From: Eledone cirrhosa
Lineage: Eukaryota
Length of the DNA stretch: 64,000 nucleotides
Reading direction: 5' to 3'
NCBI GenBank assembly: GCA_964016885.1
Contig: OZ024746.1
Span: 44,516,001-44,580,000 of the forward strand
The translations under genes and the position numbers were made by a program. The notes under the pieces are model-generated. The model was not told the DNA's origin. It searched no databases and saw only the letters and a program-made list of their open reading frames with translations. Of the stretch, positions 14,543 through 59,988 are shown in pieces; positions within the stretch are counted from its first letter, which is position 1, and each line of letters starts with the position of its first letter.

Positions 14543-17500
14543 TCAATAAAATGCTGGGAAGAGAGTACTTCCCTTTCTACCCTGATTTCTCCTTTTCAAA
14601 TGAAATTTGAAAAAGTTAATCAGGGCATCACCGAAGAGGTAAGTGCTTGTCTTCAGCCCTTTCAAACGTGTCCACCATACTATCTCTTTCGCTATGGCCA
14701 CCAGACAGATAAAAACTGCCTGCCCTTCCCGGCTAAAGGAAGAGGGTGGGGCAATCCTCACGATGGACTCAGATGATAGCCGGATCCGTCCTACACGCGA
14801 CAGCAGGTGTTCGTCATAAACCCACAAGTCAGCAATGCTTGGACACTGGACGAGTGCGTGCAGGACGGTTTCGTCGCCCTGCGCGCATCTCGGACATGCC
14901 CGGCTGACGGCACCTCCATGCCTGTAGAGTTTATCCCGAACTGGCAAAGATCCTCGGTAGCACTGCTAGACCAGGGATTTCTGGAAGTTGTCCATAGGGC
15001 CCGGCCCGAAAGTGCTTCCGAAAAGATTAGCTAGTTGATTTTCGTCGACGCCTAGCGTTTCCCCAAGGACGTCGTCGCTCTTCCACTCCACTAATCCTCT
15101 ATAGAACGCCAAGGTGGAGTTTCCACCGATCACATTGCCCGATTGGTCGAGGGCTGCGAGCGCCTGAAGTCATTCCAGTCTCCAAGCGCTCCCTCTCGGT
15201 CTTCGCTTGACCCAGGATTGCAGCTCCGTCAAGGAGACGAGCTGGGGAAAGACGCGTCTAGCAAACGCCGACCACACCTGATCACCGTCGAGGAAGAGGT
15301 GGAGATGTCGTAGCCTAAGCGCGTGTCTGCGCATCATCAGCCACGGCAATCGCAGCCCTCCACGTAGCGGGTGTTGACAGCAGATTGACCTCCTGACCAT
15401 CGGAGCTCGTCCCTTCCACAAAAAGCGAAAGAGCAAAGGCGTCAGCGCAGTCAGGCGGGGCTTAGAACAAGGTACGACGGTCAGACGGTAGTAGATGACG
15501 GACGCGATATATGCGTTAGCCACCTCCGCTCGACCTTTCAGGGATAGCTTCCTCTCGGCCCATTTCTGGGTGAGAGAAGACACCCTGCTCGTCACCTCGT
15601 CCCAGTTTTTTGACCGTCTGGAGGTCCGGAGCGAACCAGACCCCGAGCAATTTAACCGGTCCGTCCTTTCAGCTCCCGACGACGCTGTTGGACGGCATGG
15701 ACCTGCCTCTCCAGGTGCAGAGTTGCAGACCCACTGACTTTTCCTGGTTGATCATTGCTCCTGTCACCGCTTCGTATTCTCTTAGTGTAGTGCCGATCGC
15801 CTCGATGTGTTTGACGTTCGACATCACTACGGTGACATCGTCCGCATATGCTGACACGGATCTTCCGCATCCTAGTACGCGCGGGACCCCCCTCGACGTC
15901 TCCAGTTTGTGCAGTAATGGCTCGACAGGCAATACGTACACGAGGGATTAGAGAGTACATCCTTGGCTGACCGAGCGCATGATGTTGAACGGTTCCGAAA
16001 GGTGACCGTTCACTCTCACCACAGAGCAGATGTCGCTGTGCATGGCAGCGATCCACCCTCTGAAGACGGGCCCAAAGCCAGCCGCCCTCAGGACTGCCGC
16101 TAGGGAACGATAGTCGACCCTATCGAAAGCTTTCGACTGATCTAAAATGATCACGGACCCACCCGTGCCAGGTTCCCTAGCTACTCTCTCTACGATGACT
16201 CGCATGAGGTGGAGGTTGTCGTGGATGGATCTGTCGGGAATGGCGCATGTCTGTGCCTCTCCCACCAGACCACCAACGACAAGCGCCAACCTCTTTGCTA
16301 GCACCTTGGCCAAAATCTTGAACTCTGTGTTTAGCAGAGTTATGGGCCTAAACTTATCTATGTTATCCCCCTTATTCGGATCCTTTCTCAGCAGCGACAC
16401 GGCTCCTCGGCTCACAGAGCTGGAAATTCTCCCGTTCTGTTGCCAGTTGCAGTAGACGTCCGCCAAGAGGCCTCCGAACAAGTCTGGCATCTGTACGTAA
16501 AGTTCATAGGGCAGACCATCCAAACCAGGCGATTTACCCCTTGTGCAGCCAGTCATTGCTTCCCATACTTCAGCGACTGTTATCGCCTTTTCGCAACGCT
16601 CCGCCTCAGTGGCTTAGAGCCAAGGCAGTCCGTCGAGGTAGACACTAAAGTCCATCCCACGATCCAGCCTGCCGCTGCCCCCGAACAGCTGAGCGAAGTG
16701 TCGCTGAAAAGCTTCCCACATTTGCCCGGGATCGAGTAGCATGCGCCCGTCTTGGTCCACCAAAGACCGGATCGTGGCTTTGTTGCCACGACGCCCCTCC
16801 GCTACTCGGGCCCATTGAACGGCTTCCGTCTCCTCGCGTCTGAGAGCACGCACCCTAGCTCTGACAACGCAGCCTTCGTGCTTTGCATTGAAGAATTGGT
16901 CAAGGGCCAATTTCGCCGCAAGTACGTCGGTCGCGATGCCTTTGCTAAACGCCTTGTCTAAATTTCTAACTAATTCTCCCTCTGCTATATTTTTCTCTAT
17001 AGCTAAAGCCTTACTAAACCTAATGGACTCTATTCTAATTGCTCTTTTCAGAGCAAACCACCACTTGTTGTTGACGATGGCCCCCGTCAACGCCCGCTTA
17101 ACTAGTTCGCTAATCCAGTCTCTGTAGGCCTTGCGGTCCTGGTAAGGACGCGTTTAGCTTCCAGTAGCCGGGTCCTCGTCTATGAAGCCTATCTAAGTCA
17201 AGCACACAGATCACGAATTTGTGGTCCGTGTAGCTGACTATCTTGAATTGTGGACAGCCTATGCTAGACCTATCTATTTCCCTACAAAATACTCTATCTA
17301 GATATTATCTAGATGACCCTATGCGATTTGTCCAAGTCCACATTGGCACATTCTGGAAATCCAATCGGTACCTGTCAGACAGTTCAAAACGCCTGAGCAG
17401 GTTGGTGAGGCTCTTGCACCCTCCTCCCCTATCTGCTAATCCCACACAGTCCCAGCGTGCATCTAAGATCCAGTTCCAGTCGCCCACTAACACTAAAGTG

Positions 17501-17901
17501 CGGGATGTTCCAAGAAAGATCTCCAGACGCCGGAAGAAATCAGGCCGCCCTGCTCCTGTCGGGGCATAGACCGTCACTAGCCTGAAAGCTTGCCCGTCTC
17601 CGCTGGTCACGTATAGCACCAGCAACTTACATTCTGGGTCCAGGAAGATGGCCCGTATGTCGAGATCCAAACCTCTCCGAAAAAGCACAGCGACTCCTCC
17701 TCCCGATCCCGGATGGCTGGGAGATGCGTACACATCGTAGCCGCCGAAGATCGGTGCGAAGGCCCGTGCTTCGGAGATTCTGGTCTCGCTGATGGCCACT
17801 ACATCTATGTTTAGTGACCTGAGGTCGTTGAGCAGGTGGCCCTGCCTCCATGATGACCCCAAGCAGCGTGCATTTATGCTGCCTATTCTGAGTGAGGTCA
17901 T
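14543..17901 (-). pseudogene. ORF2: APE endonuclease + RT + C-terminal Cys motif, frameshifted
   Basis: SINARCL, VAISET, VYAP, LVGDWN (APE); KSPGLDG, FRPITLLN, DQSKAFDRV, SQGC, AYADD (RT); CPRCAQGDETVLHALVQC. Confidence 0.9.
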
Positions 17902-17978
17902 GTTGAAATGGAGTGGAAAAAATGGGAAAGACCACTTACCTTACTTCTCGTAGAGGAAGGATGGTTTGTCCATCCTTT

Positions 17979-19912
17979 TCACTGCTTGTGGCCTGCTCCG
18001 GAAGGATGTCGTTTTAAATCCTCCTGGAGAGTGTTTGTCGGAAGTCTCCGATGTCTTTGGGGAATTTTTGTTTTAGTGTCGTGTACGTTTTCTGCGTGAT
18101 GCGAGTGATTTGTATGTGTGGAGGTGGTGTGAACATTTGGGTTGTTGTGTAGTCTTTTTCTGTGATGCTGGTGTTGTGTTGTATGTAGGTGTAATAATTG
18201 GTTGTTGTTCAAATTTAAAGCTGTGTAGTGTGTATCGTTTTGGTTGTTTTGTTTTGTTTGACTTTGTTGTGGGTTTGTTTCTGTTACGCTTTTTGGTGAC
18301 TTTTGTGGTGTTGGTGATGGTGGTGTTGGGGTTAATGATGGTGATGGTGTTGGTGTTTGCGCTGATGGCGTTGGTGATGCTGGTGTGGATGGTGGCATAT
18401 CTGTCCGAACTTTTTTGATTGATAATTTATTTGTTTCCCTCTGTATTTTGTTTTTGGAGGGGGAGGGAAGAGAATTTTTTCTTTTTTGATTGTTTCTTTT
18501 TTTTTTTCCTGATACCGTTTCCCACTCCTCGTCGTCACAATCTGTCTCCAGTGGCGATAAGCCGGGGAGTGGAAAATCCTCCACAGGCGTTGGTTTTGGT
18601 TGTGCCCTTGTGGTGGTGTAGGCGCTGGTGCCAGTTCTGGCGCGTTGGGTGGTGGGGGTGTTGGTTTTGCTACTGTTGCTGGGTTGTTGCTGTTACAGTT
18701 GCTTCTGTTGTTGCTGCTACAGTTGTTGCTGCCATATCTGCTGCTGGTCGTGTTGATGGTTGTGTCACTGGGGTGGGTAAGAGAGGTGGCCTCAACCTTT
18801 TAGCCTGAGGGTAGAAAGCCCTTAGGTGGGTTCCTTCACCACAAACGACACACCTAGGCCTTCTGCCCTTGACGATTACGGTGAGGTGGCTGCCGTCAGT
18901 GAGGTCTATTACCTCTGGGATCTCCTCAATGCTTTTATGGTCCGCTTGGATCAGGAGCTCCATCCCAGATCCGGACCAGTTCTCCTGCTTTTGTTTCGCT
19001 ATTTCGATTATCTTGGTATTGCCTCGATGCCGGCGAGGACGGCAGCCATTAGCCAGGGAATTTCGATGGCCGGTGGAACGTGGGTCACCCTGATCTTCAC
19101 AAGTCTCTAGCCACAATAGCTTGGGACGAGTGTGACGTCGTCACTTCTTAATGGGGCCATGGAGCGTTCTCTGGCCTCCTGTGGTGTTTCAAAGAACACG
19201 CCACGGTTCCATATTTCTGCCCACGTCTGATGTGTGTTTTGTTTGCCCACACATGTCCCAAAGCTTTTTGGATTTGGGACTCGGATGCCCGTTCCACTCG
19301 GCGCGATTTTATGTTAATATACCGATAAGACACGGTGCATAGGCGACGGTGCTCCATTTTATTAGGTGTGTGTGTGCGTGGTGGTGGGGGGTGTGTGTGT
19401 GTGTGTGTGTGAGGGGGGGGGGGCTGACCCTCTACCCATCTTTTTTTACCATTCTTTGGCTTCTTCTAATTCCTCCTGAGTTATCTGGATCGCTTCGCAC
19501 GTTTTTGCTACTCTGGCAAAACTCAGGGTAGTTTTCTTAATTTCATTGTTGCTATTGTTGTTATCGTTATTTTTGTTATTGTTAATTTTAGTTTCAGTTG
19601 TGGTGGTGGCGTCTGTGGTGTTCGGTGTGGAAGAGTTCATTTTGGTTGAATTCATTTCGATATCACGAGTTAATTTATTTTTTCTTTTGTTTCTGTTGTC
19701 GATGTGGAGGTGGTGGGGGTGGCAGCTTTAACACCTGCAGTCATTGGTAATGGCGGGAAATGAATGTCTGTCTGAGACAAATTTAAAATATTGCTACTGC
19801 TTATATTTTTAGTGTTGGCAAACGTAGTAATATTTACAATGGTGATGTCGGTGTGAGGTGTTAGTTTGTGAAGAAGGCTCTCAGCTACTGGGTTCAGCTG
19901 TGAGTCGGCCAT
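17979..19912 (-). pseudogene. ORF1 (gag-like) relic with low-complexity ends and a decayed CCHC knuckle
   Basis: Fragments in several frames upstream of ORF2, including GRRPRCVVCGEGTHLRAFYP, flanked by Thr/Pro/Asn-rich tracts. Confidence 0.65.
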
Positions 19913-35135: not shown

Positions 35136-38100
35136 CCCGATAGAGCGGCCGATTTGACCTGGCCGATAGATATCGACTAGATTTTCCGACTGTGCCACTG
35201 TGGACGTGGACTAAATTAGCGAAACATCTACATCGTACCTAGATAGGGTTCTAGTTAGAAAGAAGGATAACATAATCTGTCCACAAATGTTCGTGGTTGC
35301 CTATTCATATCACAAATTAGTGACCTGCTTAGTCAACCTTGACAAAACCCATAGACAGGGACCCGGCTACTGGAAGCTGAACTTGTCGTTACCGACATAC
35401 AAAGCCTACAGTAGACGGATTAGCACTTTAGTTAAGCAGCACTTGACGAGGGCCATTGTCAACAACAGATGGTGGTACTCTCTCAAGAGGGCAGTTAGAG
35501 TAGACTCGATAGGTTTTAGTAAAGAATTAGTGTTAGATAGAAATAAGACCGAAAAGGAACTGGTAGATAAAGTAGAAGTGGCACTTAGGAGTGACAACGT
35601 AGCCAGCGTGCTAGCGACGAGAACGGCCATGGACCAGTTCTTCGACACAAAGAATGAAGGCTGAGTTGTCAGAAGCAAAATACGTGCTCTGGGAAACGAG
35701 GGAGCCAAAGCTATTAGCTGGACCCGAGTGACGGATGCGAAAAGTGGCAACAAGTCCACGATTCGTTCTTTGAAGGACCAAGACCGACGCGTGATACGTG
35801 AGCCGAAGCAGATGTGCGCGGCCTTTCAGCGGCACTTTGCTTAACTGTTCGGGCAGGGCGGCGCACCGGGAGGGGCTATGGATTTCGGTCCATACCTCGA
35901 CGGCCTACAGCGACTCTCGGACACCGAGGCGAAGCTCTGCGAAAGGCCGATTTAGGCCGCTGAGATAGGGGACGGGCTGAGCCAATGCGGCAAACGCAAA
36001 TCTCCAGGTCTCGACGGTCTACCCTACGAATTTTATGTAGCAATGCCGGACTTATTCTCCGGTCTCCTGGAAGCGGTCTACTGCAACTGGCAGCAGAACG
36101 TGAGAATTTCCAGTTATGTGACCAAGGGCGTAATCACGTTAGTCAGGAAGGACGAGAACAAGGGGGATGGCATAAGCAACTTCCGGCCCATAACTTTGCT
36201 CAACACAGAGTTACAGATTTTGGCCAAGGTGTTGGCAAAGAGGCTGGCACTTGTCGTCGAAAACCTGGTGGGAGAAGCGCAGACATGCGCAATCTCGACC
36301 AAGTCCATACACGACAACCTCCACCTCATGCGATACATCATAGAGAGGGTAGGGTGTAAACCCGTCTTCGGTGGGGCCCTGATCAACGTGGATCAGTCTA
36401 AGGCTTTCGATAGGGTTGACCATCGTTACCTGGATGCAATGCTCGAGGCGGCAGGCTTCGGACCCGTTTTCAGAGGCTGGATTGCTGCAATGCACAGCAG
36501 CAACACCTGCTCGAGGGTCAAGGTTAACGGCTACCTCTCGGAGCCGTTCCAAATCGCGCGATCCATGCGACAGGGATGACCTCTCTCCTCCCTTCTGCAT
36601 GTGCTGGCTCTCGACCCACTACTGCGGAAGTTGGAGCTGCTGCAGGGAAACTCCTTGGAACCGGGATTGAGGAAAGCGGTGTCGGCCTACGCCGTGACGT
36701 GACAGTAATGGTGTCGTGCGCCTCGGAAATCGGGCAGATCGGCACCTTACTGGAGGAATACGAAAGGTTTACAGTAGCCAAGCTGAACCGGGACAAGTCC
36801 ATCGGTTTGCAACTCGGAACGTGGAGGGGCAAAACGATGCCTTCCGACGGCGTCGTCGGAGGCTGGACGGAGGGACCGGTGAAGCTGCTCGGGGTCTGGT
36901 TCGGACCGGACCTCCAGGTGGAGAAAAATTGGGACGACGTAACGGGCAGGGTGTTACACTCGCCCAGAAGTAGGCCGAGTGCAAACTACCCTTGAAAGGT
37001 CGAGCGGAGGTGGCGAACACTTATATAGCGTCCGTCATCTACTACCGCTTGACCGTCATACCTTACCCAGCGAAAGCGCTCGCCAAAATGGACGGGCGCT
37101 CTTCCGATTCTTTTGGAAGAAGCGGGCTCCCTTGGTGAGAAGATCCATCTGAAGTCAACACCCTTCGAACGGAGGGCTGGGGATGCGTAGACACGCATTA
37201 AGGCTACGGCACCTCCAGGTATTCCTCACCGGTCAGCCGGTGTGGGCCCCTTTTGTGAGGCGAGCCTTTCCAAGACTCGTCTCACTCACCGAGCGGCAAT
37301 CCTGGGTCAAGCAAAGACCGAGAAAAGTGGGCGACTGGCACATTGAATGTGCCCAGGCGCTCACGGCTCTCTGGCAATCGGATCCGGCAATCAGTGGAGA
37401 CTCAACCTCAACATTCTAAGAGGGTTGGTGCGCAGCAAGTGCGACGACGCTCTCGGAGAGGCTCTGGGCATGGAGGAAGATGAGCTAGCCAGTCTGTTTG
37501 GTAGGACGTTTGGCCCGGGACCGATGAACAACTTCCAAAACTCCCTGGATTGGCAGTGCTACCGAAGAGCTCTACCCGTTCGGGACAAGCTCTACAGACA
37601 CGGGCGCCCGGGTAAGGACCCCTCGAAGAAGATCTGTCCGAGATGCGTGAGTGACGAGGAAACCGTCGCGCACGCATTCGTACACTGCCCGGGCGTTGCT
37701 GACCTGTGGGGCTATGTGGAACGACTACTGTCGCGGGTGGGACCAATCCGGTTGACCACCGAGTACATTGTCACGATCAAACCGCCTCCCCGCTTCAAAA
37801 ACGAAAGAGAGGCGGTTTTCCTCTGTGTGATAGCTATGGCGAAAGAGGTTGCATGGTGGACGAGGTTGAAAGGGCTGAGGTCAGACACCTTTCTCTCCGA
37901 CCAACAAACTGGTCCTTTTTTCAAGTACCATTTTAGAAGAAGGAACAGAATGGAGAGAGAGGTGCTCTACCCCAGTAAGTTTTATGAAAGGTGGGTGAAA
38001 GTGGCGAGAATGGACCGAGTGAATGGGCCTTCTCTCTATATCAGCCTGTAGGTGAGAGAGGAGAGGAAGGAGGAGAGGAAGGGAGCACCCGCTCTTTGTG

Positions 38101-44094: not shown

Positions 44095-44129
<35 letters not shown>

Positions 44130-44200
44130 ATATATATATAAAATATTAAACAAATAATGAATAAACAATGAAAACAGTTCCTTATATTAAACAAAAAAAG

Positions 44201-44354
44201 TTCATTATTTAACGATCGTTTCTAGGATATATATGTGTTAGAATTGGCATGCATATTCAACAGATCTATGTACAAAATTATACAAAATTATACAAACTAT
44301 CAAGATTAAATATACATACCAACACATATATACGCCGTCTTCAGAAATAATGAA
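44201..44354 (-). ncRNA. Type I hammerhead ribozyme motif with long stem II (mirror copy)
   Basis: Reverse complement of 56086-56239. Confidence 0.75.
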
Positions 44355-44987
44355 ATATATTTATTGATAATAACAACAATTCAAAATTTCAGGTCCGTTT
44401 GGGAACAAAATTGACCAATGAAAATACAAAAGGTTTAATGCAGTTCGGTGTGTGTATATACATGTAACTACCCTTACACATATTTTACAAAAATGTATGC
44501 ACAACTTGTATACGCATACGAAAAGGATGGATGCAAATACAAAATTTCAAGGTTAATGTCTCTGTAAGTTTATAATGCACAGATAAGATGCGTATAGACA
44601 CATAAATATGAAATAAGTGTATATACATATTTTCATACTCACTCATATCCGTACAATCACACATACACACACATAAACTACGAACATACAAACACACACA
44701 CACCCCCACTCATATATATATATGTGGATATAAAATCCTAAGCACATGGATATTAATTCACTCACATAAACATTGGCACACACATTTAGATCAAGATACA
44801 GAAATTAGGTGGGAGGGGGGGAGAGGTCAGTATTCAACTGTTTGGGCAGACTGCTTAATATAGATGTATCTATAAACTAAGAAAATAAAAAATAATAAAT
44901 AATAAATAAACATTAAAAAGGAAAGAAAAGAAAAAGAAAAAGAAAAAGAAAAAGAAAAAAGAAAAAAGAAAAAAGAAATATATCAAG

Positions 44988-45037
<50 letters not shown>

Positions 45038-45227
45038 TGTATATATATATATATATATATACATACACGTACATACACACATATATATACACATACACAC
45101 ATACAAACACATACATACATATACACACATCCACACTTAGAACATACATACACACACATATATAAACATATACATATACACACATACATACATATACACA
45201 CATACATATAAATACACATATATAAAT

Positions 45228-45294
<67 letters not shown>

Positions 45295-45581
45295 CACTCA
45301 TACATACACATATAATCACACATACTATATAGACACACATATATATACACACATACACGCACATATACATACACTTACATACATATATACATACAGATAT
45401 ACACATACATACCTATATATACACACAAATACATACAGACATACATACATACATACAGACAAATACTTAGGCATCTATATATCGGTATATACATACAAAC
45501 ACCACTACACTCTCACACAACTCAGACATACAAAGAAAAAGGTATATATCTATACACATATACATATACAAATAGAGAAAC

Positions 45582-45613
<32 letters not shown>

Positions 45614-45852
45614 ATATATATATATACATATATATATACATATACATACATATACACATATACACACATACACATACATACACATACATACATGTACACA
45701 CACATAGATATATATACACATACACACATACACACATACATATTTAGTCATACACACACATACACCTACACGAACATACACATACACATATATAAAGATA
45801 TATATACACACACACACACACATACACACACACACATATATATAAAAAATGA

Positions 45853-45895
<43 letters not shown>

Positions 45896-46807
45896 TACAT
45901 ACATATACATACACACATACATAGACATATATGTACATACATACACATACATAGATACATACACACACATACATACATATATATATACACACATAGACAT
46001 ATACTTACATACACACACAACATACATACACACATATATACTCATACATAGAATTAGATATATAATCATACATACATACGCACTTACATATACTCATATA
46101 TACAAATACATACGCATCCATATATGCGTATATACATAGAAACACCACTACACCCTCACCCAACTCAGACATACAAAGAAAAAGGCATATACATATACAT
46201 ATATACACGCATTAATAGAGATATATATACACATATATATATATATATATATACACACACATACACTTATATATATATACTCACACCCACATACAACCAA
46301 AAATACACATACAAACACCCACATATACATATATATACACATATATATATATACACACACATAAAAAACAGACATGCACATATATATTTTTTTACACACA
46401 TATATACACATATATATACATATACACACCCTCACATATACACACATACACATAAGTTATATTATAATAATAAATAATATATATATATAACACATACATA
46501 TATACATATATATATATACATATATATACATATATATATATACACATACGAATATAGACATATATACGCACATAGATACACATATATATATATATACACA
46601 TACATATACACACACACATATACACACTCACATATACATGTGTGTGCACACACACATATATACACATACACACATATGCACATAAACACATATATGTGTA
46701 TACATGCGCACACACACATATATCCACATAGATACGAAGATAGACATATAAATAGAGAGACATACATATATATACACACACACACATATACATACATACA
46801 TACACAC

Positions 46808-46858
<51 letters not shown>

Positions 46859-48200
46859 CATATACACATACACACATACACATACACATATATATACACA
46901 CATGCATATATACACATATACACATACATACACACACATATATATACACACACAATCTTACATTCTTATTTGCATGCGCATATATGTATTTTTATATTCA
47001 GATATAAATACCCAAACATATATACACCTACCTACATATATATTCATACATACACGCCTACAAAGACAGAAGGTAGTAGTATGGGGGAAAGGGGGGGGGT
47101 TGGAGAAGGGGATTATAGTAAATATATGTTTCAAGAAACATAGAATATTATCCGTATCAGGATCCAATGTATATTTTTTTACATAGTTTCAGTGTTAGGA
47201 AATACAATAAACAAGAAATAAGGCAAAATTTATGCATTTCAAAATAAATAAGTATACCATTAAATTATATGTTAACTAAACTAAAGATAGTTAACATATT
47301 GATTTCTAAGGTGTAAATTAGTTAGGTTTATAATATTTGAAGCAGAATTTTGAAGTTAAATAGTAGTAGAGTATTAATTATAGTATAACTAAATTAAAAT
47401 TAATAACGTTATGGTATCAATATTAGGAACTGAATTTAGTAATAGGGAAAAAACAAATAAGTATTACATCGGTAGTAGAATATAAATTATAGGTTAACTA
47501 AATTAAAAATTATATATTTATTTCTATAGTATATGTTAATTAGGTATATAATAAATAAAACAGATATTGTATTTTATCAATAGCAGAATATAATTATATG
47601 CAAATAGAAATCAAAATTAATACATATACATATACATATACATACACATATATATATACACATATATATACATATATATATACACATATACACATATACA
47701 CACACACACACATACACATACACATATACATATACATATTTTTTCAAAAATTGCAAAGAATATATTAACTAGGTATATATCCAAAACACATCCCATTCCA
47801 TGATTACATGACATTCTGCAATTCGTCTGTATAAGGATACTAATTTTAAGCCAATTAAATTAAATTTTTAGGTTGATTAAAATTAAAACCAAATTATAAA
47901 TATATTTCTAAAATGTATATTAATAAGGTCTATAATACTAAAAATTAATTCTCTGTCATTGGATACACGATATTTTGTTATATTTTATCTGTAAAAGAAT
48001 TATAATAAAAGGTTTAAATAAATTAAAATTAATCTATAAATTAAATTACTAAGTATATATTAGTAATATTTAAAGGTTTTTCACAATTTATGATTACATA
48101 ATATTTTATATTCTCATCTGTAATAGAATTTTAATTAAATTAAATTTATAGGTTAACTAACATTTAAATTAAAATTAAATTAATTTCTAAAATAATGTTA

Positions 48201-50196
48201 TTAATTAGGTTTATAATATTTAAATGTTTTTTTTAGTTTATGATTACACGATATAATTAATTCCTGTCGTTTATTTAATAGGATATCCTTAGATTTCATT
48301 ATTTCAAATAGTTCTTGGGAACATAATCTACATTCATTTCTATTATTTTGATAAGGGGTGGCTCTTTTGAGCACACTCCAGGTCAAATCATATTCTATAT
48401 TCTTATTTTTATAAATATTGATTTTTTCTGCTAGAGATGTTGTATTAGCCAGTGCGGCATTTTTAAAACTATGCTTGTGGGTATTAAACCTTGTCTTAAA
48501 ATTGTTAGAGGTAGCTCCTATATATGAGCAAATAGAATCTTTAGTTTTAACATTACATTTATAGACTATGTTGTTAACAAGACAATTCCCTTTTAATGGG
48601 CAGTTTGCTTTGTTTCTACAGTTACAACCTTTCGTTAATTTTGTATTTGAGGAGATATTATGGTTAATTTGATGTACTGGTGGTATACTTATGGTTTTCT
48701 TACATTTATATGCATTATAGGCACTTATATTTTGTTTTATGTTATTTGTTGTAGAATATGAGAATTTAACTGTAGACCTATTTAAGATTTGATGGTATTT
48801 GTGGTTTGGCGGGAAGTTTTTCTCTAGGATATAAAAAAATTTTTTAGCAATATTATCCTTAATTTGTAAATTAAATGGAGCATTATACCAAGTAACCCGT
48901 CTATTACGGTTTCTATGTTGTTTATTATTTTTATTATTTTTATAGGTTGTATCGTGATTTTTACTAGGAGGATTAATGTTAATGATCTCACCACAACCAT
49001 TTTTAGTTATATTTGTAGATTTAGGTGTTTTATCCTTTTTATTAGGAGTTTTATTATTAATATTTATTAGAGTTGTATGATGAGTAGTTTTTTGAGAGTT
49101 ACTATACTTTATATTAGAAGATTTGGTATTTTGGGGTATAGTGTGGGTGGCATTTAGGTGTGTACTTTTCATTTGGTGTTTGTTGGTAATATTAGGTTGT
49201 ATGCTTTCAGTATTTTTAGTAGAAGGTATATATTCTAATCTATTTTTGTGGCCACTTCTATCTAGAGATTCGTTATAGAAGGTAGCATTTTTATCAAATA
49301 CATCTTGGTTAGAAGAAAGGTTAGAAATTCTAAGTGATATATTATATGCAAGGTTTTTAAGGATAGATTTAGGGTGATTAGATTGTGAGTGTATGTAATG
49401 TAAGTTTTGGTTTGGTTTATGGTAAGGTTGGTAGATACCCGTAGCTAAATCTAAAGTTATATCTAGGAAATTTACTACTTTACTTGTTTTTTCAAAAGTA
49501 ATATTAAGATTATAATAGTCTTTAAGGAAAGTTCTAATATGTTTTTTGTTTTTTTCAATTTCTGAAAGGCTAAGGTTGTTAGAAAGAAGAAGACAGTCAT
49601 CACGATATAAACCACCTTTGAGGTGGGGAAAGGAGGCATTTATGTTGAAAAGGAGAAAGAGGCCCACAAGATCAGTAATTTGGGCGGAATCGCTTGAACC
49701 CATAGTAATATCAAATAGATTACTATATGTGTTTCTGGTCCAGTATTCATTCTGAAATTCAATAAGTGTTAGTCTAGCATGTGTAATAATATTAATGTCA
49801 TCCAAAGTTAAGTTAGATCTATTTTTAGCAAATATCGATGCTTTGTTCAGGAGTATAGGTGATATAGAAGAATAGTAATTATCTATATCAAATTGTAGAA
49901 ATGAAGCAGAAGATTTACATCTAATATTTTTAAACCAGTTAATTACCTGGGAGGTGTTTTCCCAGAGTGGTAAAATAACGTGTTTTCTTATTTGTGGGAT
50001 GACTCTATCCAAAATTTTTTTGCTAATTATTCCAATATCTGATTTGGAGGGACATATAAGTCTAATAGAAGGATTTGAGTTAAAATTTGATTTATGATCC
50101 TTCAGGTTGAAGTGTGGTCTTTTCAATGCCAAAGGTTCAGTTCTATCTTCAATGTTTAGTTTTTTTACTATGTTGTGTGTTTTGTTGTTGATGTTG
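48201..50196 (-). CDS. Penelope-like (Naiad-type) RT + GIY-YIG endonuclease, 5'-truncated, open frame
   Basis: FDIDNYYSSI, ITMGSSDSAQ, LYRDD, FLDITLDL, SNHP, WYNAPF, CNCRNKANCPLKGNCL, IVYK...YIGAT...FKTRF..H. Three aa differences from the right-arm copy. Confidence 0.9.
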
Positions 50197-52241
50197 ATAA
50201 AGAACTCAGAAAAAATTATAAAAAATCTAATAATGCGTCACTCACCAACATCAACAACAAAACACACAACATAGTAAAAAAACTAAACATTGAAGATAGA
50301 ACTGAACCTTTGGCATTGAAAAGACCACACTTCAACCTGAAGGATCATAAATCAAATTTTAACTCAAATCCTTCTATTAGACTTATATGTCCCTCCAAAT
50401 CAGATATTGGAATAATTAGCAAAAAAATTTTGGATAGAGTCATCCCACAAATAAGAAAACACGTTATTTTACCACTCTGGGAAAACACCTCCCAGGTAAT
50501 TAACTGGTTTAAAAATATTAGATGTAAATCTTCTGCTTCATTTCTACAATTTGATATAGATAATTACTATTCTTCTATATCACCTATACTCCTGAACAAA
50601 GCATTGATATTTGCTAAAAATAGATCTAACTTAACTTTGGATGACATTAATATTATTACACATGCTAGACTAACACTTATTGAATTTCAGAATGAATACT
50701 GGACCAGAAACACATATAGTAATCTATTTGATATTACTATGGGTTCAAGCGATTCCGCCCAAATTACTGATCTTGTGGGCCTCTTTCTCCTTTTCAACAT
50801 AAATGCCTCCTTTCCCCACCTCAAAGGTGGTTTATATCGTGATGACTGTCTTCTTCTTTCTAACAACCTTAGCCTTTCAGAAATTGAAAAAAACAAAAAA
50901 CATATTAGAACTTTCCTTAAAGACTATTATAATCTTAATATTACTTTTGAAAAAACAAGTAAAGTAGTAAATTTCCTAGATATAACTTTAGATTTAGCTA
51001 CGGGTATCTACCAACCTTACCATAAACCAAACCAAAACTTACATTACATACACTCACAATCTAATCACCCTAAATCTATCCTTAAAAACCTTGCATATAA
51101 TATATCACTTAGAATTTCTAACCTTTCTTCTAACCAAGATGTATTTGATAAAAATGCGACCTTCTATAACGAAGCTCTAGATAGAAGTGGCCACAAAAAT
51201 AGATTAGAATATATACCTTCTACTAAAAATACTGAAAGCATACAACCTAATATTACCAACAAACACCAAATGAAAAGTACACACCTAAATGCCACCCACA
51301 CTATACCCCAAAATACCAAATCTTCTAATATAAAGTATAGTAACTCTCAAAAAACTACTCATCATACAACTCTAATAAATATTAATAATAAAACTCCTAA
51401 TAAAAAGGATAAAACACCTAAATCTACAAATATAACTAAAAATGGTTGTGGTGAGATCATTAACATTAATCCTCCTAGTAAAAATCACGATACAACCTAT
51501 AAAAATAATAAAAATAATAAACAACATAGAAACCGTAATAGACGGGTTACTTGGTATAATGCTCCATTTAATTTACAAATTAAGGATAATATTGCTAAAA
51601 AATTTTTTTATATCCTAGAGAAAAACTTCCCGCCAAACCACAAATACCATCAAATCTTAAATAGGTCTACAGTTAAATTCTCATATTCTACAACAAATAA
51701 CATAAAACAAAATATAAGTGCCTATAATGCATATAAATGTAAGAAAACCATAAGTATACCACCAGTACATCAAATTAACCATAATATCTCCTCAAATACA
51801 AAATTAACGAAAGGTTGTAACTGTAGAAACAAAGCAAACTGCCCATTAAAAGGGAATTGTCTTGTTAACAACATAGTCTATAAATGTAATGTTAAAACTA
51901 AAGATTCTATTTGCTCATATATAGGAGCTACCTCTAACAATTTTAAGACAAGGTTTAATACCCACAAGCATAGTTTTAAAAATGCCGCACTGGCTAATAC
52001 AACATCTCTAGCAGAAAAAATCAATATTTATAAAAATAAGAATATAGAATATGATTTGACCTGGAGTGTGCTCAAAAGAGCCACCCCTTATCAAAATAAT
52101 AGAAATGAATGTAGATTATGTTCCCAAGAACTATTTGAAATAATGAAATCTAAGAATATCCTATTAAATAAACGACAGGAATTAATTATATCGTGTAATC
52201 ATAAACTAAAAAAAACATTTAAATATTATAAACCTAATTAA
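50192..52241 (+). CDS. Penelope-like (Naiad-type) RT + GIY-YIG endonuclease, 5'-truncated, open frame
   Basis: Same motifs as the left arm. CxCx5C-P-x-G-x-C before the GIY-YIG and a C-terminal CxLC..E..LLNKR fit the Naiad clade. The ORF-track start at 50175 lies in the inverted arm and is not a natural start. Confidence 0.9.
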
Positions 52242-53582
52242 TAACATTATTTTAGAAATTAATTTAATTTTAATTTAAATGTTAGTTAACCTATAAATTT
52301 AATTTAATTAAAATTCTATTACAGATGAGAATATAAAATATTATGTAATCATAAATTGTGAAAAACCTTTAAATATTACTAATATATACTTAGTAATTTA
52401 ATTTATAGATTAATTTTAATTTATTTAAACCTTTTATTATAATTCTTTTACAGATAAAATATAACAAAATATCGTGTATCCAATGACAGAGAATTAACTT
52501 TTAGTATTATAGACCTAATTAATATACATTTTAGAAATATATTTATAATTTGGTTTTAATTTTAATCAACCTAAAAATTTAATTTAATTGGCTTAAAATT
52601 AGTATCCTTATACAGACGAATTGCAGAATGTCATGTAATCATGGAATGGGATGTGTTTTGGATATATACCTAGTTAATATATTCTTTGCAATTTTTGAAA
52701 AAATATGTATATGTATATGTGTATGTGTATGTGTGTGTGTGTGTATATGTGTATATGTGTATATATATATGTATATATATGTGTATATATATATGTGTAT
52801 GTATATGTATATGTATATGTATTAATTTTGATTTCTATTTGCATATAATTATATTCTGCTATTGATAAAATACAATATCTGTTTTATTTATTATATACCT
52901 AATTAACATATACTATAGAAATAAATATATAATTTTTAATTTAGTTAACCTATAATTTATATTCTACTACCGATGTAATACTTATTTGTTTTTTCCCTAT
53001 TACTAAATTCAGTTCCTAATATTGATACCATAACGTTATTAATTTTAATTTAGTTATACTATAATTAATACTCTACTACTATTTAACTTCAAAATTCTGC
53101 TTCAAATATTATAAACCTAACTAATTTACACCTTAGAAATCAATATGTTAACTATCTTTAGTTTAGTTAACATATAATTTAATGGTATACTTATTTATTT
53201 TGAAATGCATAAATTTTGCCTTATTTCTTGTTTATTGTATTTCCTAACACTGAAACTATGTAAAAAAATATACATTGGATCCTGATACGGATAATATTCT
53301 ATGTTTCTTGAAACATATATTTACTATAATCCCCTTCTCCAACCCCCCCCTTTCCCCCATACTACTACCTTCTGTCTTTGTAGGCGTGTATGTATGAATA
53401 TATATGTAGGTAGGTGTATATATGTTTGGGTATTTATATCTGAATATAAAAATACATATATGCGCATGCAAATAAGAATGTAAGATTGTGTGTGTATATA
53501 TATGTGTGTGTATGTATGTGTATATGTGTATATATGCATGTGTGTATATATATGTGTATGTGTATGTGTGTATGTGTATATG

Positions 53583-53637
<55 letters not shown>

Positions 53638-54541
53638 GTGTGTATGTATGTATGTATATGTGTGTGTGTGTATATATATGTATGTCTCTCTATTTATATG
53701 TCTATCTTCGTATCTATGTGGATATATGTGTGTGTGCGCATGTATACACATATATGTGTTTATGTGCATATGTGTGTATGTGTATATATGTGTGTGTGCA
53801 CACACATGTATATGTGAGTGTGTATATGTGTGTGTGTATATGTATGTGTATATATATATATATGTGTATCTATGTGCGTATATATGTCTATATTCGTATG
53901 TGTATATATATATGTATATATATGTATATATATATATGTATATATGTATGTGTTATATATATATATTATTTATTATTATAATATAACTTATGTGTATGTG
54001 TGTATATGTGAGGGTGTGTATATGTATATATATGTGTATATATGTGTGTAAAAAAATATATATGTGCATGTCTGTTTTTTATGTGTGTGTATATATATAT
54101 ATGTGTATATATATGTATATGTGGGTGTTTGTATGTGTATTTTTGGTTGTATGTGGGTGTGAGTATATATATATAAGTGTATGTGTGTATATATATATAT
54201 ATATGTGTATATATATCTCTATTAATGCGTGTATATATGTATATGTATATGCCTTTTTCTTTGTATGTCTGAGTTGGGTGAGGGTGTAGTGGTGTTTCTA
54301 TGTATATACGCATATATGGATGCGTATGTATTTGTATATATGAGTATATGTAAGTGCGTATGTATGTATGATTATATATCTAATTCTATGTATGAGTATA
54401 TATGTGTGTATGTATGTTGTGTGTGTATGTAAGTTTATGTCTATGTGTGTATATATATATGTATGTATGTGTGTGTATGTATCTATGTATGTGTATGTAT
54501 GTACATATATGTCTATGTATGTGTGTATGTATATGTATGTA

Positions 54542-54608
<67 letters not shown>

Positions 54609-54853
54609 TCATTTTTTATATATATGTGTGTGTGTGTATGTGTGTGTGTGTGTGTATATATATCTTTATATATGTGTATGTGTATGTTCGTGTAGGTGTA
54701 TGTGTGTGTATGACTAAATATGTATGTGTGTATGTGTGTATGTGTATATATATCTATGTGTGTGTACATGTATGTATGTGTATGTATGTGTATGTGTGTA
54801 TATGTGTATATGTATGTATATGTATATATATATGTATATATATATATATATAT

Positions 54854-54885
<32 letters not shown>

Positions 54886-55172
54886 GTTTCTCTATTTGTA
54901 TATGTATATGTGTATAGATATATACCTTTTTCTTTGTATGTCTGAGTTGTGTGAGAGTGTAGTGGTGTTTGTATGTATATACCGATATATAGATGCCTAA
55001 GTATTTGTCTGTATGTATGTATGTATGTCTGTATGTATTTGTGTGTATATATAGGTATGTATGTGTATATCTGTATGTATATATGTATGTAAGTGTATGT
55101 ATATGTGCGTGTATGTGTGTATATATATGTGTGTCTATATAGTATGTGTGATTATATGTGTATGTATGAGTG

Positions 55173-55219
<47 letters not shown>

Positions 55220-55381
55220 ATTTATATATGTGTATTTATATGTATGTGTGTATATGTATGTATGTGTGTATATGTATATGTTTATATATGTGTGTGTATG
55301 TATGTTCTAAGTGTGGATGTGTGTATATGTATGTATGTGTTTGTATGTGTGTATGTGTATATATATGTGTGTATGTACGTG

Positions 55382-55451
<70 letters not shown>

Positions 55452-56436
55452 CTTGATATATTTCTTTTTTCTTTTTTCTTTTTCTTTTTCTTTTCTTTCC
55501 TTTTTAATGTTTATTTATTATTTATTATTTTTTATTTTCTTAGTTTATAGATACATCTATATTAAGCAGTCTGCCCAAACAGTTGAATACTGACCTCTCC
55601 CCCCCTCCCACCTAATTTCTGTATCTTGATCTAAATGTGTGTGCCAATGTTTATGTGAGTGAATTAATATCCATGTGCTTAGGATTTTATATCCACATAT
55701 ATATATGTGAGTGGGGGTGAGTGTGTGTTTGTATGTTCGTAGTTTATGTGTATGTTTATGCATATACGCGTGTGTATGTGTGATTGTACGGATATGAGTG
55801 AGTATGAAAATATGTATATACACTTATTTCATATTTATGTGTCTATACGCATCTTATCTGTGCATTATAAACTTACAGAGACATTAACCTTGAAATTTTG
55901 TATTTGCATCCATCCTTTTCGTATGCGTATACAAGTTGTGCATACATTTTTGTAAAATATGTGTAAGGGTAGTTACATGTATATACACACACCGAACTGC
56001 ATTAAACCTTTTGTATTTTCATTGGTCAATTTTGTTCCCAAACGGACCTGAAATTTTGAATTGTTGTTATTATCAATAAATATATTTCATTATTTCTGAA
56101 GACGGCGTATATATGTGTTGGTATGTATATTTAATCTTGATAGTTTGTATAATTTTGTATAATTTTGTACATAGATCTGTTGAATATGCATGCCAATTCT
56201 AACACATATATATCCTAGAAACGATCGTTAAATAATGAACTTTTTTTGTTTAATATAAGGAACTGTTTTCATTGTTTATTCATTATTTGTTTAATATTTT
56301 ATCTTGACTCTGTATACCGTTTATCTTTCACCGAAAGTGATTTTTCATTACATCTCTTCTTTCCATGATATCCGGAATACATTGAGTTCTTCATACGGAT
56401 TGGACACTACCGTAAACTCTTGGTAGATTTATCTAC
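50197..56436 (+). mobile_element. Right arm of palindromic Naiad-type element, with 49-bp central spacer and unpaired 3' tail
   Basis: Spacer 50197-50245, arm 50246-56302, tail 56303-56436 ending atctac before (TA)n. Confidence 0.93.
56086..56239 (+). ncRNA. Type I hammerhead ribozyme motif with ~115-nt stem II
   Basis: Stem I ttcattattt (56086-95)/aaataatgaa (56230-39); CTGAAGA at 56096-56102; GAAA at 56218-21; palindromic stem III CGATCG; predicted cleavage triplet GUU. Confidence 0.75.
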
Positions 56437-56460
56437 ATATATATATATATATATATATTT

Positions 56461-58075
56461 CTTTCTCCATCTCACAGTCTGTGGCCTACTCCAGTGCCAC
56501 GGAACACCCGCCCATCGCCTCACGGTCGAACAACGTACTATCTTCCTCTTACAGACCCACACTCCCCCGGCCTGAACTCCCCAACCTTATTCCTTTAGCG
56601 TTCGACCGCCCCCCTCCCCCACTTATCCCCCACTAACACCACTAACACACCCCTCCTTTTCACCGCCCACCCCACACTAACAATACTAACACCTCCACTC
56701 CACCCCTCATCTAACCACCCTTCCCCAACTAACATACTAACATCCCTTCCCTCCCCTCTTCTCCTCCTCCCCCCTCCTTATCACACGCACACACTCACAC
56801 CACCCACCCCACACGCAACTAACATCACTAACACCCTCCAACCCCGCGCACACGTACCCACACACCCTCGTACACCACCAACTCTACACACCCTACCCCC
56901 ACTAACCCCCACTCACACCTGCATTCCACCCCTCCCCACCTCCCGTCTACTAACACCCACTAACACCTCCTCACCAAACTACACACACACCAGTACACCA
57001 CACTCCCTCCATAGAACCACACACACCCTTCTCTCCCCACTCCACACTCACTCATCCCACTAACACCCCTACTAATACACACACACACAGACACACACAC
57101 GCACACACACACACACCCTCCTCACTCCAACTCTCACACCTACCCATCCTCGCCTCCCTACCCTTCCGCTGACTGCTGCTATGCCCTTCCGACCACTGTC
57201 TCAGCACCAACTGACCACAGCACTTCCACTGCTGACCACTTCCTGTTGCGCGCGCACCCCACATCTCTCCTCTTCCGACCACCGCTTCTTGGATTACCCA
57301 CACGCGTTTTGACTTCCAACCAAAATCTCCATACATCCGTGTAACTTACCACTTTCAACCATCCTCTAACACCATCACCTATATAACTCACCCACACACA
57401 CATCCCAAAACAAATTTTTTTTATCCACACGCCACCCACACCCACAACACGCTTAAACCACCACACACACGTGCTTCCCACCACATATTTACACCCTCAG
57501 CCCCCTGATTCCTCTCCCCCCACCCCCTATCCACACACGCACAGACCCTCCGACACACAAAAACACCCCCCACACACACCTTCCTGAACATGCAACCCCG
57601 TTCTTCCCCCAACCCGCACTTTCACATACACACACACACACACACACGCACACCTAACCACACACACCACCTTCAGCCCTCCCCGCTCGGACACCCCGTC
57701 TCCCTCTCCCCACTCCACCCGCCTCCACCTCTACTCACCCCACACCCTTCCACCACCTGTTTACCCCCCTTTTAATTTCAGTTTATTTTGATCATGCCTT
57801 TATTTTTAAATGTTCTCATTCCTTGTATTTTGATCATGCTTTATTTTTATTTATTATTTATTATATTTTTGTCTTTATTTGTTAATTTTTCATTCGCACC
57901 GTTTCCTTTCGCTATATGTCTCTCCACCACTCCCCTACACACCTTTTGAACTCTTACCTGAAGAAGGGCTTATGCCCGAAACGTCGTCCTCCACCTACCC
58001 CCCACTCTCCTGAGCGTGAATCTAATAAACATTTGTCGTACTGCCTCTCTGTTCTGTCCCTGTTCAATTGTTTAT
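56461..58075 (+). mobile_element. 3' remnant of a second Penelope-like element (Neptune-type GIY-YIG end, C/A-rich 3' region)
   Basis: 56468-56598 encodes HLTVCGLLQCHGTPAHRLTVEQRTIFLLQTHTP/GLNSPTLFL* with 1 frameshift. Hammerhead core and aataaa (58024) near the 3' end; (TA)n on both sides. Confidence 0.7.
57956..57988 (+). ncRNA. Minimal hammerhead core, stem I largely lost
   Basis: CTGAAGA-A-GGGC-TTAT-GCCC-GAAA-CG-TC; only 2 bp (ac/gt) of stem I remain. Confidence 0.55.
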
Positions 58076-58289: not shown

Positions 58290-59495
58290 CTAACAGCGCT
58301 GCGATCGAATGTGGCTTTTTAGCCCAGCCAATGATCTAAAATGTCTTGCACAGAGTCGGCAACCAAAACATTCACTGGGAATAGTCGGCTGTGGCTGGAG
58401 TTCGTGTACTTTTGCATGTCGCTTGAGCCCTCCTGCTGATTTACATTCTCTACCACATGTTTGGCAAGCATGATGAGTAGCATCTCCAACAGCAGCCTGG
58501 TAGACAACCACTGGTCTTACTTTATGACTGCGAAGATGACTTTCGAGTCCAGCTTTGCTTAGGCAGAGTCTTGCACATACGCTGCATGTCAGCACCATAG
58601 GAGGACCCTCGCCGTCTGGAAGTGCAACAGCAATGCCCTTCCTCACATCCCGCTTAACTTTCTCGTGTGCTATTCGAGATGCCTCAAAGGCAACTTTTCC
58701 CTCATATACAGTCTTTCTCCATTTATTACGATTAGCAGCAATATTCTCCCATGTATCAGCAGAGATGTTAGCGTCTTTCAGAGAGGCTTTCAAGGAATCC
58801 TTATACCTCTTTTTTGGCTTATGTGGCGGTCGTTTTCCTTTAACCAACTCTCCATAAAAGAGTTGTTTTGGTATTCTAGAATCCTTCATCCTGGCAAGAT
58901 GACCACTCCAACGGAGTCGTTGCTTAAGCACAAGAGCTTCTATACTGTCACACATAGAGCATTCCAAAATCTCGACATCACTGATGTGGTCCCTCCAGTG
59001 AACGCCATGGATCCGTCTGAGACACATCTGATGGAAACGCTCCAATTGCTTAAGGTGGCGTCGATATGTGACCCAGGTCTCGCAGGCATAAAGAAGACAA
59101 GAGAGCACACATGCCCTGTACACCTTTACCTTTGTCCTCCTGCATATGTCTCGCCGACCCCAGAGTCGCGTTTCTAGCTTTCCGAAAGCATCACTTGCTT
59201 TCCTAATCCTAAGTGAGATTTCACTGTCAAGGTTGCTGTATCGATTGACAGTGCTTCCCAGGTAGACAAACTGATCAACCACTCCAAGTCGTTTGCCATA
59301 CACATAGATGTTTGGTTCAGTGTACTGCTTACCGGGGGCAGGTTGGAACATGACGACGGTTTTCTTGAGACTGACAGTCAGACCTAGGACAGTGCAAGCG
59401 TCAGAAAATGCATTCAAAATGTGCTGCATATCACTCTCTGTGTGCGCTACAAGATCGCAATAATCTGCATACAAGATGTCTCTTATGATTGATGT
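58290..59495 (-). pseudogene. 5'-truncated RTE-clade ORF (RT C-terminal half + three C2H2 fingers)
   Basis: ILYADY (YADD mutated), FVYLGS, LLYACETW, RLRWSGH, PKQLFYGEL, then CSVC..H..H, CQTC..H..H and CRLC..H. The 5' end is joined to (ATGT)n. Confidence 0.88.
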
Positions 59496-59988
59496 AAATA
59501 CATACATACATACATACATACATACATACATACATAGTCTACAAATGGCTGCGATAGCTGGCACCTTCAAAATATGCAAAACATTCTTGCGATTCAAGGG
59601 ATGACAATTTCTTTTCTTTTACAACCTTGCCACCAGGAAGGTGGCCGGTCAAAAAAATATACTCGACCTAGTCAGACCTAGGACAGTGCAAGCGTCAGAA
59701 AATGCATTCAAAATGTGCTGCATATCACTCTCTGTGTGCGCTACAAGATCGCAATAATCTGCATACAAGATGTCTCTTATGATTGATGTAAATACATACA
59801 TACATACATACATACATACATACATACATACATACATACATACATACATACATACATAGTCTACAAATGGCTGCGATAGCTGGCACCTTCAAAATATGCA
59901 AAACATTCTTGCGATTCAAGGGATGACAATTTCTTTTCTTTTACAACCTTGCCACCAGGAAGGTGGCCGGTCAAAAAAATATACTCGA
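59376..59988. repeat. Tandem duplication (~290/320 bp) spanning the RTE 5' junction
   Basis: 59376-59666 is repeated at 59670-59988, differing in (CATA)n length. Confidence 0.9.

Follow-up and report, generated by a model that had tools for sequence, protein, structure and literature searches.

Published descriptions of Penelope-like elements (PLEs) already include inverted copies with a tail on one end, and the origin of PLE tandem and inverted structures has been named an open question (PMC8557442). The closest described relatives of the element studied here belong to the Hydra clade of C-terminal EN+ PLEs, defined in Craig et al. 2021 (PMC8557442) and including Hydra-1_Obim and Penelope-13_HM. 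Hydra-clade elements and our family have in common a C-terminal GIY-YIG domain, RW(K/R), DKT, CxCX5C, CxxC and CxH motifs without CCHH, and a (TA)n target, and the hammerhead-like motif of our family has a predicted cut after U, as do Hydra-clade hammerheads; Penelope-13_HM, in addition, is listed as having at its 5' end an inverted copy that is 5'-truncated, with a hammerhead on both strands. Hydra-clade elements, however, are generally shorter than 3 kb and their tail usually measures 30-40 bp, whereas this family has a unit of ~6.65-6.8 kb, a 134-nt tail and thousands of young copies, together with a 3' region of ~3 kb made of microsatellites, an Asn/Thr/Lys insert of 100 aa and a stem II of 115 nt. 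Naiads resemble the family in their tandem and inverted insertions, one-end tail and (TA)n preference, but differ in having an N-terminal endonuclease, DKA and CCHH, and no canonical hammerhead. The Penelope elements of the rotifer Adineta vaga (PMC3846280) likewise form head-to-head palindromes with the tail on one pseudo-LTR, and carry long Asn-rich ORF inserts and an initiator-like motif in the pseudo-LTR, although they have a very low copy number and belong to the Penelope/Poseidon clade; their palindromes were explained by self-priming on an antisense template. Finally, according to the passages considered here of the study on PAc, the Poseidon protein of Anolis carolinensis (PMC11167929), both target strands are cut and extended in vitro by this anole PLE protein, a predicted dimer, and two reverse transcription start sites bound the tail, as the two fixed ends do in our family; PAc differs in its clade and in its tail of 30-40 nt, and those passages hold no discussion of inverted insertions.

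In the window, meaning the whole stretch of 64,000 nucleotides analyzed here, the assembly holds a 12.3-kb palindrome (44138-56436) with arms of 6.06 kb each, bordered by (TA)n target microsatellites that can be read directly from the sequence, without strand, at 44095-44137 on the left and 56437-56458 on the right. Alignment of the two arms places the left arm, a 5'-truncated Hydra-clade copy, at 44138-50196 on the minus strand, its outer end coinciding with the family's internal start site, 6106 (50197 counted as 1), and the stretch of the right arm that pairs with it at 50246-56302 on the plus strand. Between them, the 49-bp spacer (50197-50245, plus) is 5' sequence by which the right arm exceeds the left: the right-arm frame runs on through it, its sequence is typical of the family, and it is joined to the left arm without microhomology and without added bases. 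The 134-nt tail (56303-56436, plus), present on the right side only, is the sequence between the two family outer ends, 6106 and 6240. This is the geometry proposed by a sequence-only reading that preceded our work, and its confirmation rests on the assembly. Over ~6,040 aligned bases, the arms differ by 10 substitutions (two additional mismatches in the flank alignment were excluded from this count), four inside the ORF, of which three change an amino acid, exactly the number of protein differences first counted; the arms also differ in length at microsatellites or homopolymers (10 changes), and the left arm alone lacks a 20-bp segment, at 44670, both being differences of the kinds first described.

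The earlier statement that both arm frames are open holds, but both are 5'-truncated, and neither window arm could make the full protein. The left-arm frame, encoding reverse transcriptase (RT) and GIY-YIG domains (48201-50196, minus), has no start codon and begins ~16 codons after the right-arm frame (50199-52241, plus), which corresponds to codons 134-812 of the 812-codon family ORF; codons 1-133 or more are thus missing from both arms, and the first Met falls inside the RT. The YRDD of the right arm lies at 50835-50846. After the RT thumb region, alignment to homologs delimits an Asn/Thr/Lys-rich insert of ~100 aa (51228-51527, plus), much shorter in four of the six aligned homologs and partly present in two, and further downstream a CxCX5C linker (51816-51842, letters CNCRNKANC) leads into a C-terminal GIY-YIG with CxxC and CxH and no CCHH, linker and domain together spanning 51816-52238 on the plus strand. 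Tandem copies of the family carry a single 812-aa ORF with YRDD followed by CNC...CPL and VYK...YIG, and the RWR and SDKT motifs, which belong to the part cut off from the window arms, were found in the full-length copies L004, L016 and L023. The endonuclease has CRLC..E and N..CNH, with no CxxC between its GIY and YIG halves, and no N-terminal GIY-YIG was found at the start of the full ORF.

While a Pfam search of the element protein returned no significant match, the motifs and a by-eye comparison with the published alignment identify the element as a Hydra-clade Penelope-like retrotransposon and not, as the sequence-only reading had it, a "Naiad-type" one. A Naiad identity was rejected because the endonuclease is C-terminal, the motif is DKT and not DKA, CCHH is absent and a hammerhead core is present, where Naiads show an N-terminal GIY-YIG, DKA, CCHH and no canonical hammerhead. 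The C-terminal GIY-YIG, RWK/DKT, CxCX5C, CxxC and CxH without CCHH, and the (TA)n preference are all those of the Hydra clade; the length of the tandem unit departs from it, the description "generally <3 kb" not being a diagnostic trait. Features of PLEs in general, namely partial tandems with pseudo-LTRs, an inverted 5'-truncated copy and a tail on one end, are present as well.

Exact family ends next to TA number 3,976 for the tail end and 3,006 for the internal end genome-wide, alongside 286 exact tandem junctions. A survey of other copies for inversion, which the first reading had suggested, was carried out on 59 consecutive tail ends from one stretch of a single contig (C1), a sample therefore selected on the tail end; L092 was left out of the original 60 loci, and L094 and L096, which look inverted in earlier scans, were kept as "not inverted" by the final scoring. 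An inverted arm was present in 40 of these 59 insertions, and the inverted structure reached 9.9-12.7 kb in seven of the 59, so that the rarity implied for the window palindrome does not hold. The inverted arm begins at 6106 +/-2, that is 134 nt inside, in 38 of the 40, and in none of them at 6240. It extends more than 25 nt further 5' than the tail arm in 19 of the 40, and hence has sequence missing from the tail arm, seven of these 19 insertions having arms without any overlap; inner ends are about equal in 17 and the tail arm is longer in the remaining four. When 20 loci were sampled from the internal end instead, nine were solo, 10 were paired with a tail end and one could not be resolved, a second internal end being the partner at none. 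The arms of short palindromes, 10 of 12 of which yielded extracts for comparison, differ by 0-1 change, the median distance from other loci being 5-15, and those of the seven long palindromes by 0-5 in 1.7 kb versus a median of 9-55. In sum, the outer ends of the family are fixed at two positions, 6106 and 6240, and an inverted insertion has one of each; either arm may be longer, either may stand alone, and both come from one source. The window palindrome is a long, dead example of this routine family product. In the literature searched, largely at the level of listings, we found no statement of such a one-site-per-end rule, and we regard as new this asymmetry of the ends, the length of the tail, the size of the unit (6.8 kb), and the accumulation of ~1,400 arm ends of the family at one base, a likely transcription start.

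That base is a 5'-end hot spot in the pseudo-LTR, at 56089 on the plus strand (mirror position 44351), with the initiator-like sequence TC|ATT, from which we infer that 56089 is a transcription start. Symmetric junctions cluster at this single base with an excess of upstream G, the pattern to be expected from two cDNAs that both ended at the 5' end of one RNA.

LINE-1 twin priming also yields head-to-head inversions, through a second cDNA primed by the other target strand; there, the annealing position of the second primer varies among internal sites, and the arms are not known to repeat each other. In our family, by contrast, the second site keeps a constant position close to the 3' end, and overlap between the arms is usual. 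We consider it likely that the window palindrome is one recent insertion, in agreement with the single recent PLE insertion into (TA)n first proposed, in which reverse transcription started from both cut (TA)n strands, at fixed RNA sites separated by 134 nt, and head-to-head joining of the cDNAs followed. The GIY-YIG domain would cut both target strands, and each 3'-OH would prime a cDNA at its own fixed RNA site; a pair of reverse transcriptases, probably dimeric, would then copy either one and the same RNA or separate RNAs of a single locus, with one RNA probably serving as template for both cDNAs. Copying the same RNA twice would be possible because the ORF, judging from its domain architecture, presumably lacks an RNase H domain. 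The 3' ends of the cDNAs would be linked by end-joining and the second strands filled in by the host. At the window locus, both cDNAs would have extended over ~6 kb and ended within 49 nt of each other, probably where a truncated RNA had its 5' end, and the differences between arms would have arisen during or after insertion, whose age would be roughly 0.2 million years if an octopus rate is borrowed. A target-site duplication is unreadable in (TA)n, and a search for the empty site found no alternative-haplotype copy among the 40 scored of 921 + 1,534 flank candidates, both flanks being other repeats. Some observations do not favor double priming: the PAc passages mentioned above describe no difference in start sites between the strands in vitro (PMC11167929), whereas genomic copies here show one site per end, and, at the window locus only, one variant common to both arms is missing from the other 53 sequences.

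The sequence-only reading had instead proposed that truncated cDNA snapped back and was recopied; here the fold would be at the 3' end of a cDNA primed at the tail, and the copy would have been trimmed at 6106, a scheme close to the self-priming already proposed for rotifer Penelope palindromes by Arkhipova et al. 2013 (PMC3846280). Such a process also predicts a longer tail arm, as seen (by 49 nt) at the window locus, and the near-symmetric junctions in 17 of 40 sampled insertions are compatible with it as much as with double priming. However, the window junction lacks microhomology, the symmetric junctions cluster at an initiator-like base with excess upstream G, and, since 19 of 40 inverted arms extend beyond the tail arm, seven without overlap, and nine of 20 internal-site arms are solo, simple snap-back cannot produce them; we consider it unlikely at this locus and find it unsupported as the mechanism of the family.

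That the palindrome is instead a fold-back read or assembly artefact seems very unlikely, as the first reading had also argued. It is true that no short-read contig among the matches listed spans 50196/50197 (four runs from two samples, with a unique-flank depth of ~5 and possibly from a different individual), but the arms carry 10 substitutions whose minority letters, at the nine sites tested, fall on the left arm at five and on the right arm at four and, one microsatellite site excepted, are absent from the other fetched flank-matching copies; the 20-bp deletion affects the left arm only, the two flanks differ, and dozens of loci, ranging in size from 0.1 to 12.7 kb, show ends of the same geometry. 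Independent insertion of two copies, the second adjoining the first in opposite orientation, could be imagined for an abundant family that targets (TA)n and in which nesting does happen (L080). We nonetheless find this very unlikely, given a junction without (TA)n, arms that differ by 5 in 1.7 kb versus 4-5 to the nearest other copy and a median of 14 and have subfamily letters in common, and the one-of-each end rule at 38 of 40 loci.

Tentatively, and with slightly less than even confidence, double priming can be extended into a joint reading in which PLE integration would be asymmetric double priming on a single RNA by two RTs at fixed, non-interchangeable sites, both able to reach the RNA 5' end, and would yield both hundreds of 10-13 kb inverted insertions and self-propagating ~550-bp palindromes from a capped, 350-nt, hammerhead-bearing pseudo-LTR transcript. 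With thousands of young insertions and a long, easily scored 134-nt tail, this family turns the open question on PLE structures into a count of which start site is used at each end and whether the arms overlap; in our sample, simple snap-back is already excluded for roughly half of the insertions with an inverted arm, and the two-site, two-strand result obtained in vitro is tied to the structure of genomic copies. A further prediction is that multi-kilobase inverted insertions, numbering on the order of hundreds, are tolerated in a large animal genome, with a bearing on assembly, genome stability and dsRNA load.

Upstream of the 3' end, a microsatellite-rich 3' untranslated region (52703-55538, plus) is also found in other copies and is thus element-borne. 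The hammerhead noted in the first reading is present in each arm as a sequence motif: in the right arm, a type I hammerhead-like motif found by hand (56086-56239, plus) has a 10-bp stem I, CUGAAGA, a ~115-nt stem II, GAAA, and a palindromic stem III, with the cut predicted after GUU at 56229, and its mirror in the left arm (44201-44354, minus) has the core CTGAAGA at 44338-44344. We rejected the idea that 5' ends arise by hammerhead cleavage, as inner ends lie near the predicted cut in one of 59 loci (L063), in line with PAc, for which, in the passages considered here, such cleavage is not needed (PMC11167929). An Rfam search returned no hammerhead family, giving only microsatellite-driven miRNA/snoRNA noise below the gathering score, and the first pair of the 115-nt stem II is C-A, with an MFE fold that differs from a three-way junction. 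Bare CTGANGA occurs in the window at chance level (24 seen vs 24.0 expected), and therefore only the full motif counts; its core, stem I and stem III are conserved in 161 matches, with a fold z of -4.7.

The palindrome in the window (contig C6:44,516,001-44,580,000, in a genome of 3.0 Gb and 1,796 contigs with an octopus-like microsatellite load) is built as the sequence-only reading had described it, with a left arm (44138-50196) and a right arm (50246-56302), a 49-nt spacer between them, a tail (56303-56436) on the right side only, and (TA)n at both borders. The inner ends of the arms, 49 nt apart, meet at a junction with neither microhomology nor added bases. Global alignment of the arms gave 10 substitutions over ~6,040 bases, 10 length changes in microsatellites or homopolymers, and a 20-bp segment present on the right and absent on the left, in agreement with the differences noted earlier; the ORF contains four of the substitutions, and three of them alter a residue, the number of amino-acid differences counted earlier. 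Both frames are indeed open but truncated, as that of the right arm starts at codon 134, compared to 812 aa in full-length copies elsewhere, and its earliest Met sits within the RT. At the nine sites tested, the minority letter was found five times in the left arm and four times in the right, and, except at one microsatellite site, was missing from the other fetched copies with matching site flanks. Because of this split, the near-absence of these letters elsewhere, and a deletion seen only on the left, two unrelated insertions are disfavoured, and so is a fold-back read, against which the arm differences had already been held to argue. If a rate borrowed from Octopus vulgaris repeats (PMC13282606) is applied, the 10 substitutions correspond to an age of ~0.2 million years, in line with the recent insertion originally proposed; should RT errors have contributed to the arm differences, the insertion would be no older than this. 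The locus is a real insertion of a Hydra-clade Penelope-like element (PLE), ordinary for its family.

The initial label of Naiad-type, in fact, could not be retained. The protein has a C-terminal GIY-YIG endonuclease with CxCX5C, CxxC and CxH motifs, RWR and DKT being present in full-length copies, and the same features define the Hydra clade in Craig et al. 2021 (PMC8557442), where Naiads are described as having an N-terminal endonuclease and DKA, and as lacking a hammerhead; our element differs from Naiads on all three counts. A protein search returned 118 homologs, mostly of ~700 aa, with 31-48% identity. Compared to described Hydra elements, this family stands apart for its unit of 6.65-6.8 kb, a ~3-kb 3' region rich in microsatellites, a 100-aa protein insert that is 20% Asn, and a hammerhead-like motif (56086-56239) with a 115-nt stem II, whose cleavage is predicted and which the Rfam search did not report. 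The insert recalls the Asn-rich inserts of rotifer Penelopes (PMC3846280), and a Hydra element, Penelope-13_HM, is listed with a 5'-truncated inverted copy in PMC8557442.

With family positions counted from window 50197 as 1, exact ends of tail plus TA (position 6240) number 3,976 genome-wide, exact ends 134 nt further inside (position 6106) number 3,006, and tandem junctions 286. The sequence-only reading had suggested surveying other copies for inversion, and we did so on the first 60 tail ends of contig C1, with one locus (L092, wrong side) dropped. An inverted arm was present at 40 of these 59 loci, a count that leaves out two further inverted-looking ones, and seven loci held inverted structures of 9.9-12.7 kb, two of them (L051 and L085) near-symmetric like the window palindrome and the other five with larger unpaired centres. 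Extrapolated from a sample that is one stretch of one contig, this would amount to a few hundred long inverted structures genome-wide; further cases of 11-13 kb lie on C1529 and at C1:359.53 Mb, C1:99.58 Mb, C4:332.47 Mb and C2:35.27 Mb. The window palindrome is therefore a typical, if long, product of the family. Arms of some other palindromes are identical across 1.7 kb, and the family must therefore have been active very recently. Head-to-tail arrays with 4-5 full units of 6.65 kb were also seen at C6:49,528,800-49,557,481 (L013-L019) and, with an inverted arm ahead of the array, at C1:183,737,564-183,759,651 (L007, L016, L024, L025); such arrays imply very long multimeric templates. At four loci (L075, L105, L065, L131), the sequence inverts twice in succession or the junction carries short repeated motifs, as might result if the reverse transcriptase jumped between templates or copied the 5' end of the RNA repeatedly.

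The outer ends of the family are fixed at 6240 and 6106. Inverted arms start at 6106 +/-2 in 38 of the 40 loci (the exceptions being ~6061 and ~4519) and never at 6240 (0/40). When 20 internal ends outside the first sample were taken as the starting point, 10 had a tail end as partner, nine were solo, one was ambiguous, and none had a second internal end; the solo arms show that synthesis can start at 6106 independently of a tail end. By our own sorting of the survey rows, the inverted arm runs further 5' than the tail arm in 19/40 loci, with no overlap at all between arms in seven of these, the inner ends are about equal in 17, and the tail arm is longer in four. The two arms of a palindrome derive from a single source, as 10 short palindromes show 0-1 change between arms (medians to other loci, 5-15) and seven long ones 0-5 per 1.7 kb (medians, 9-55). 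The mechanism first put forward, in which a truncated cDNA snaps back and is recopied, also fits the window locus. A cDNA, however, cannot template sequence that it lacks, and so at least 19 of the 40 family loci need two primings; the solo arms ending at 6106, nine of 20 internal ends, also speak against snap-back.

With respect to the target, each arm corresponds to antisense strand that extends from the 3' end of one flank, the arrangement expected when both cut strands prime synthesis. According to Frangieh et al. 2024 (PMC11167929), a purified PLE protein, predicted to be a dimer, cuts and extends both strands, with synthesis beginning at two internal sites bounding the tail and no need for hammerhead cleavage. 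The start site is reported there to be the same for both strands, with no strand difference, and this is the chief objection to a strict rule of one site of each kind per insertion. Under priming from both strands, a single RNA molecule would probably serve both cDNAs, whose ends would then be joined to each other; at the window locus, both cDNAs would have reached the end of one truncated RNA, and one such RNA copied twice fits the palindrome. Head-to-head copies and one-sided tails are already published; for the one-site-per-end rule and the non-overlapping class, no statement was found in the literature searched, although older reviews may bear on them. What makes these data valuable is not the window locus but the family, whose insertions can be counted to test how PLEs integrate. 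A small hairpin, GTAGAT-TT-ATCTAC, forms the element's 3' end (56422-56436), and one fold prediction placed two stem-loops in the tail region; these structures may serve as signals at the two start sites.

Within the pseudo-LTR, a partial tandem repeat, 5' ends cluster at position 5893 (window 56089). In 1,380 of the 4,922 arms with the 24-nt motif starting there, the immediately preceding base is not that of the family (G in 354, A or T in 1,026); one position further inside, this holds for 292. The sequence at 5893, TC|ATT, is initiator-like. G accounted for 354/1,380 of these bases, or 253/1,279 without two junction types where the partner arm could supply it, and for 20/292 at the neighbouring position, a value that is uncorrected and drawn from a different set of possible letters. 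These figures hint at a cap-derived G and at transcription starting within the pseudo-LTR. Position 6033, where the hammerhead is predicted to cut, is no hot spot (1/59 loci). Palindromes of ~550 bp that recur genome-wide (6106 to 5893 / 5893 to 6240), consisting of the pseudo-LTR only, hammerhead motif included, made up about 11 of the 59 sampled insertions (e.g., L068, L069, L071, L072, L083 and L093 on C1). A start in the pseudo-LTR would explain them, with both cDNAs copied to the end of a 350-nt RNA, and they are possibly a self-propagating, non-autonomous, retrozyme-like subfamily.

Both flanks of the palindrome are repeats. No host gene is evident in the window among ORFs of at least 150 aa, and read-through dsRNA, editing and cruciform formation are therefore speculative. 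An abundant repeat (56467-57200; 1,534 candidates, 98-99% alike) starts 30 bp past the right end and enters a C-rich low-complexity tract. A cluster of related non-LTR retrotransposons (RVT_1 and zf-RVT; at least four copies) ending in (AAT)n lies within positions 1-21700, with one open frame of 1,141 aa (10693-14118) and a second family at 1757-5312. Two LINEs at 15170-19140 (minus) and 35956-38051 (plus), both degraded and presumably Tx1/L1-like, have frames for AP-endonuclease and RT and are mutually inverted and 76% alike; at 58290-59618 (minus), an RT fragment precedes C2H2 zinc fingers and is presumably RTE-like.
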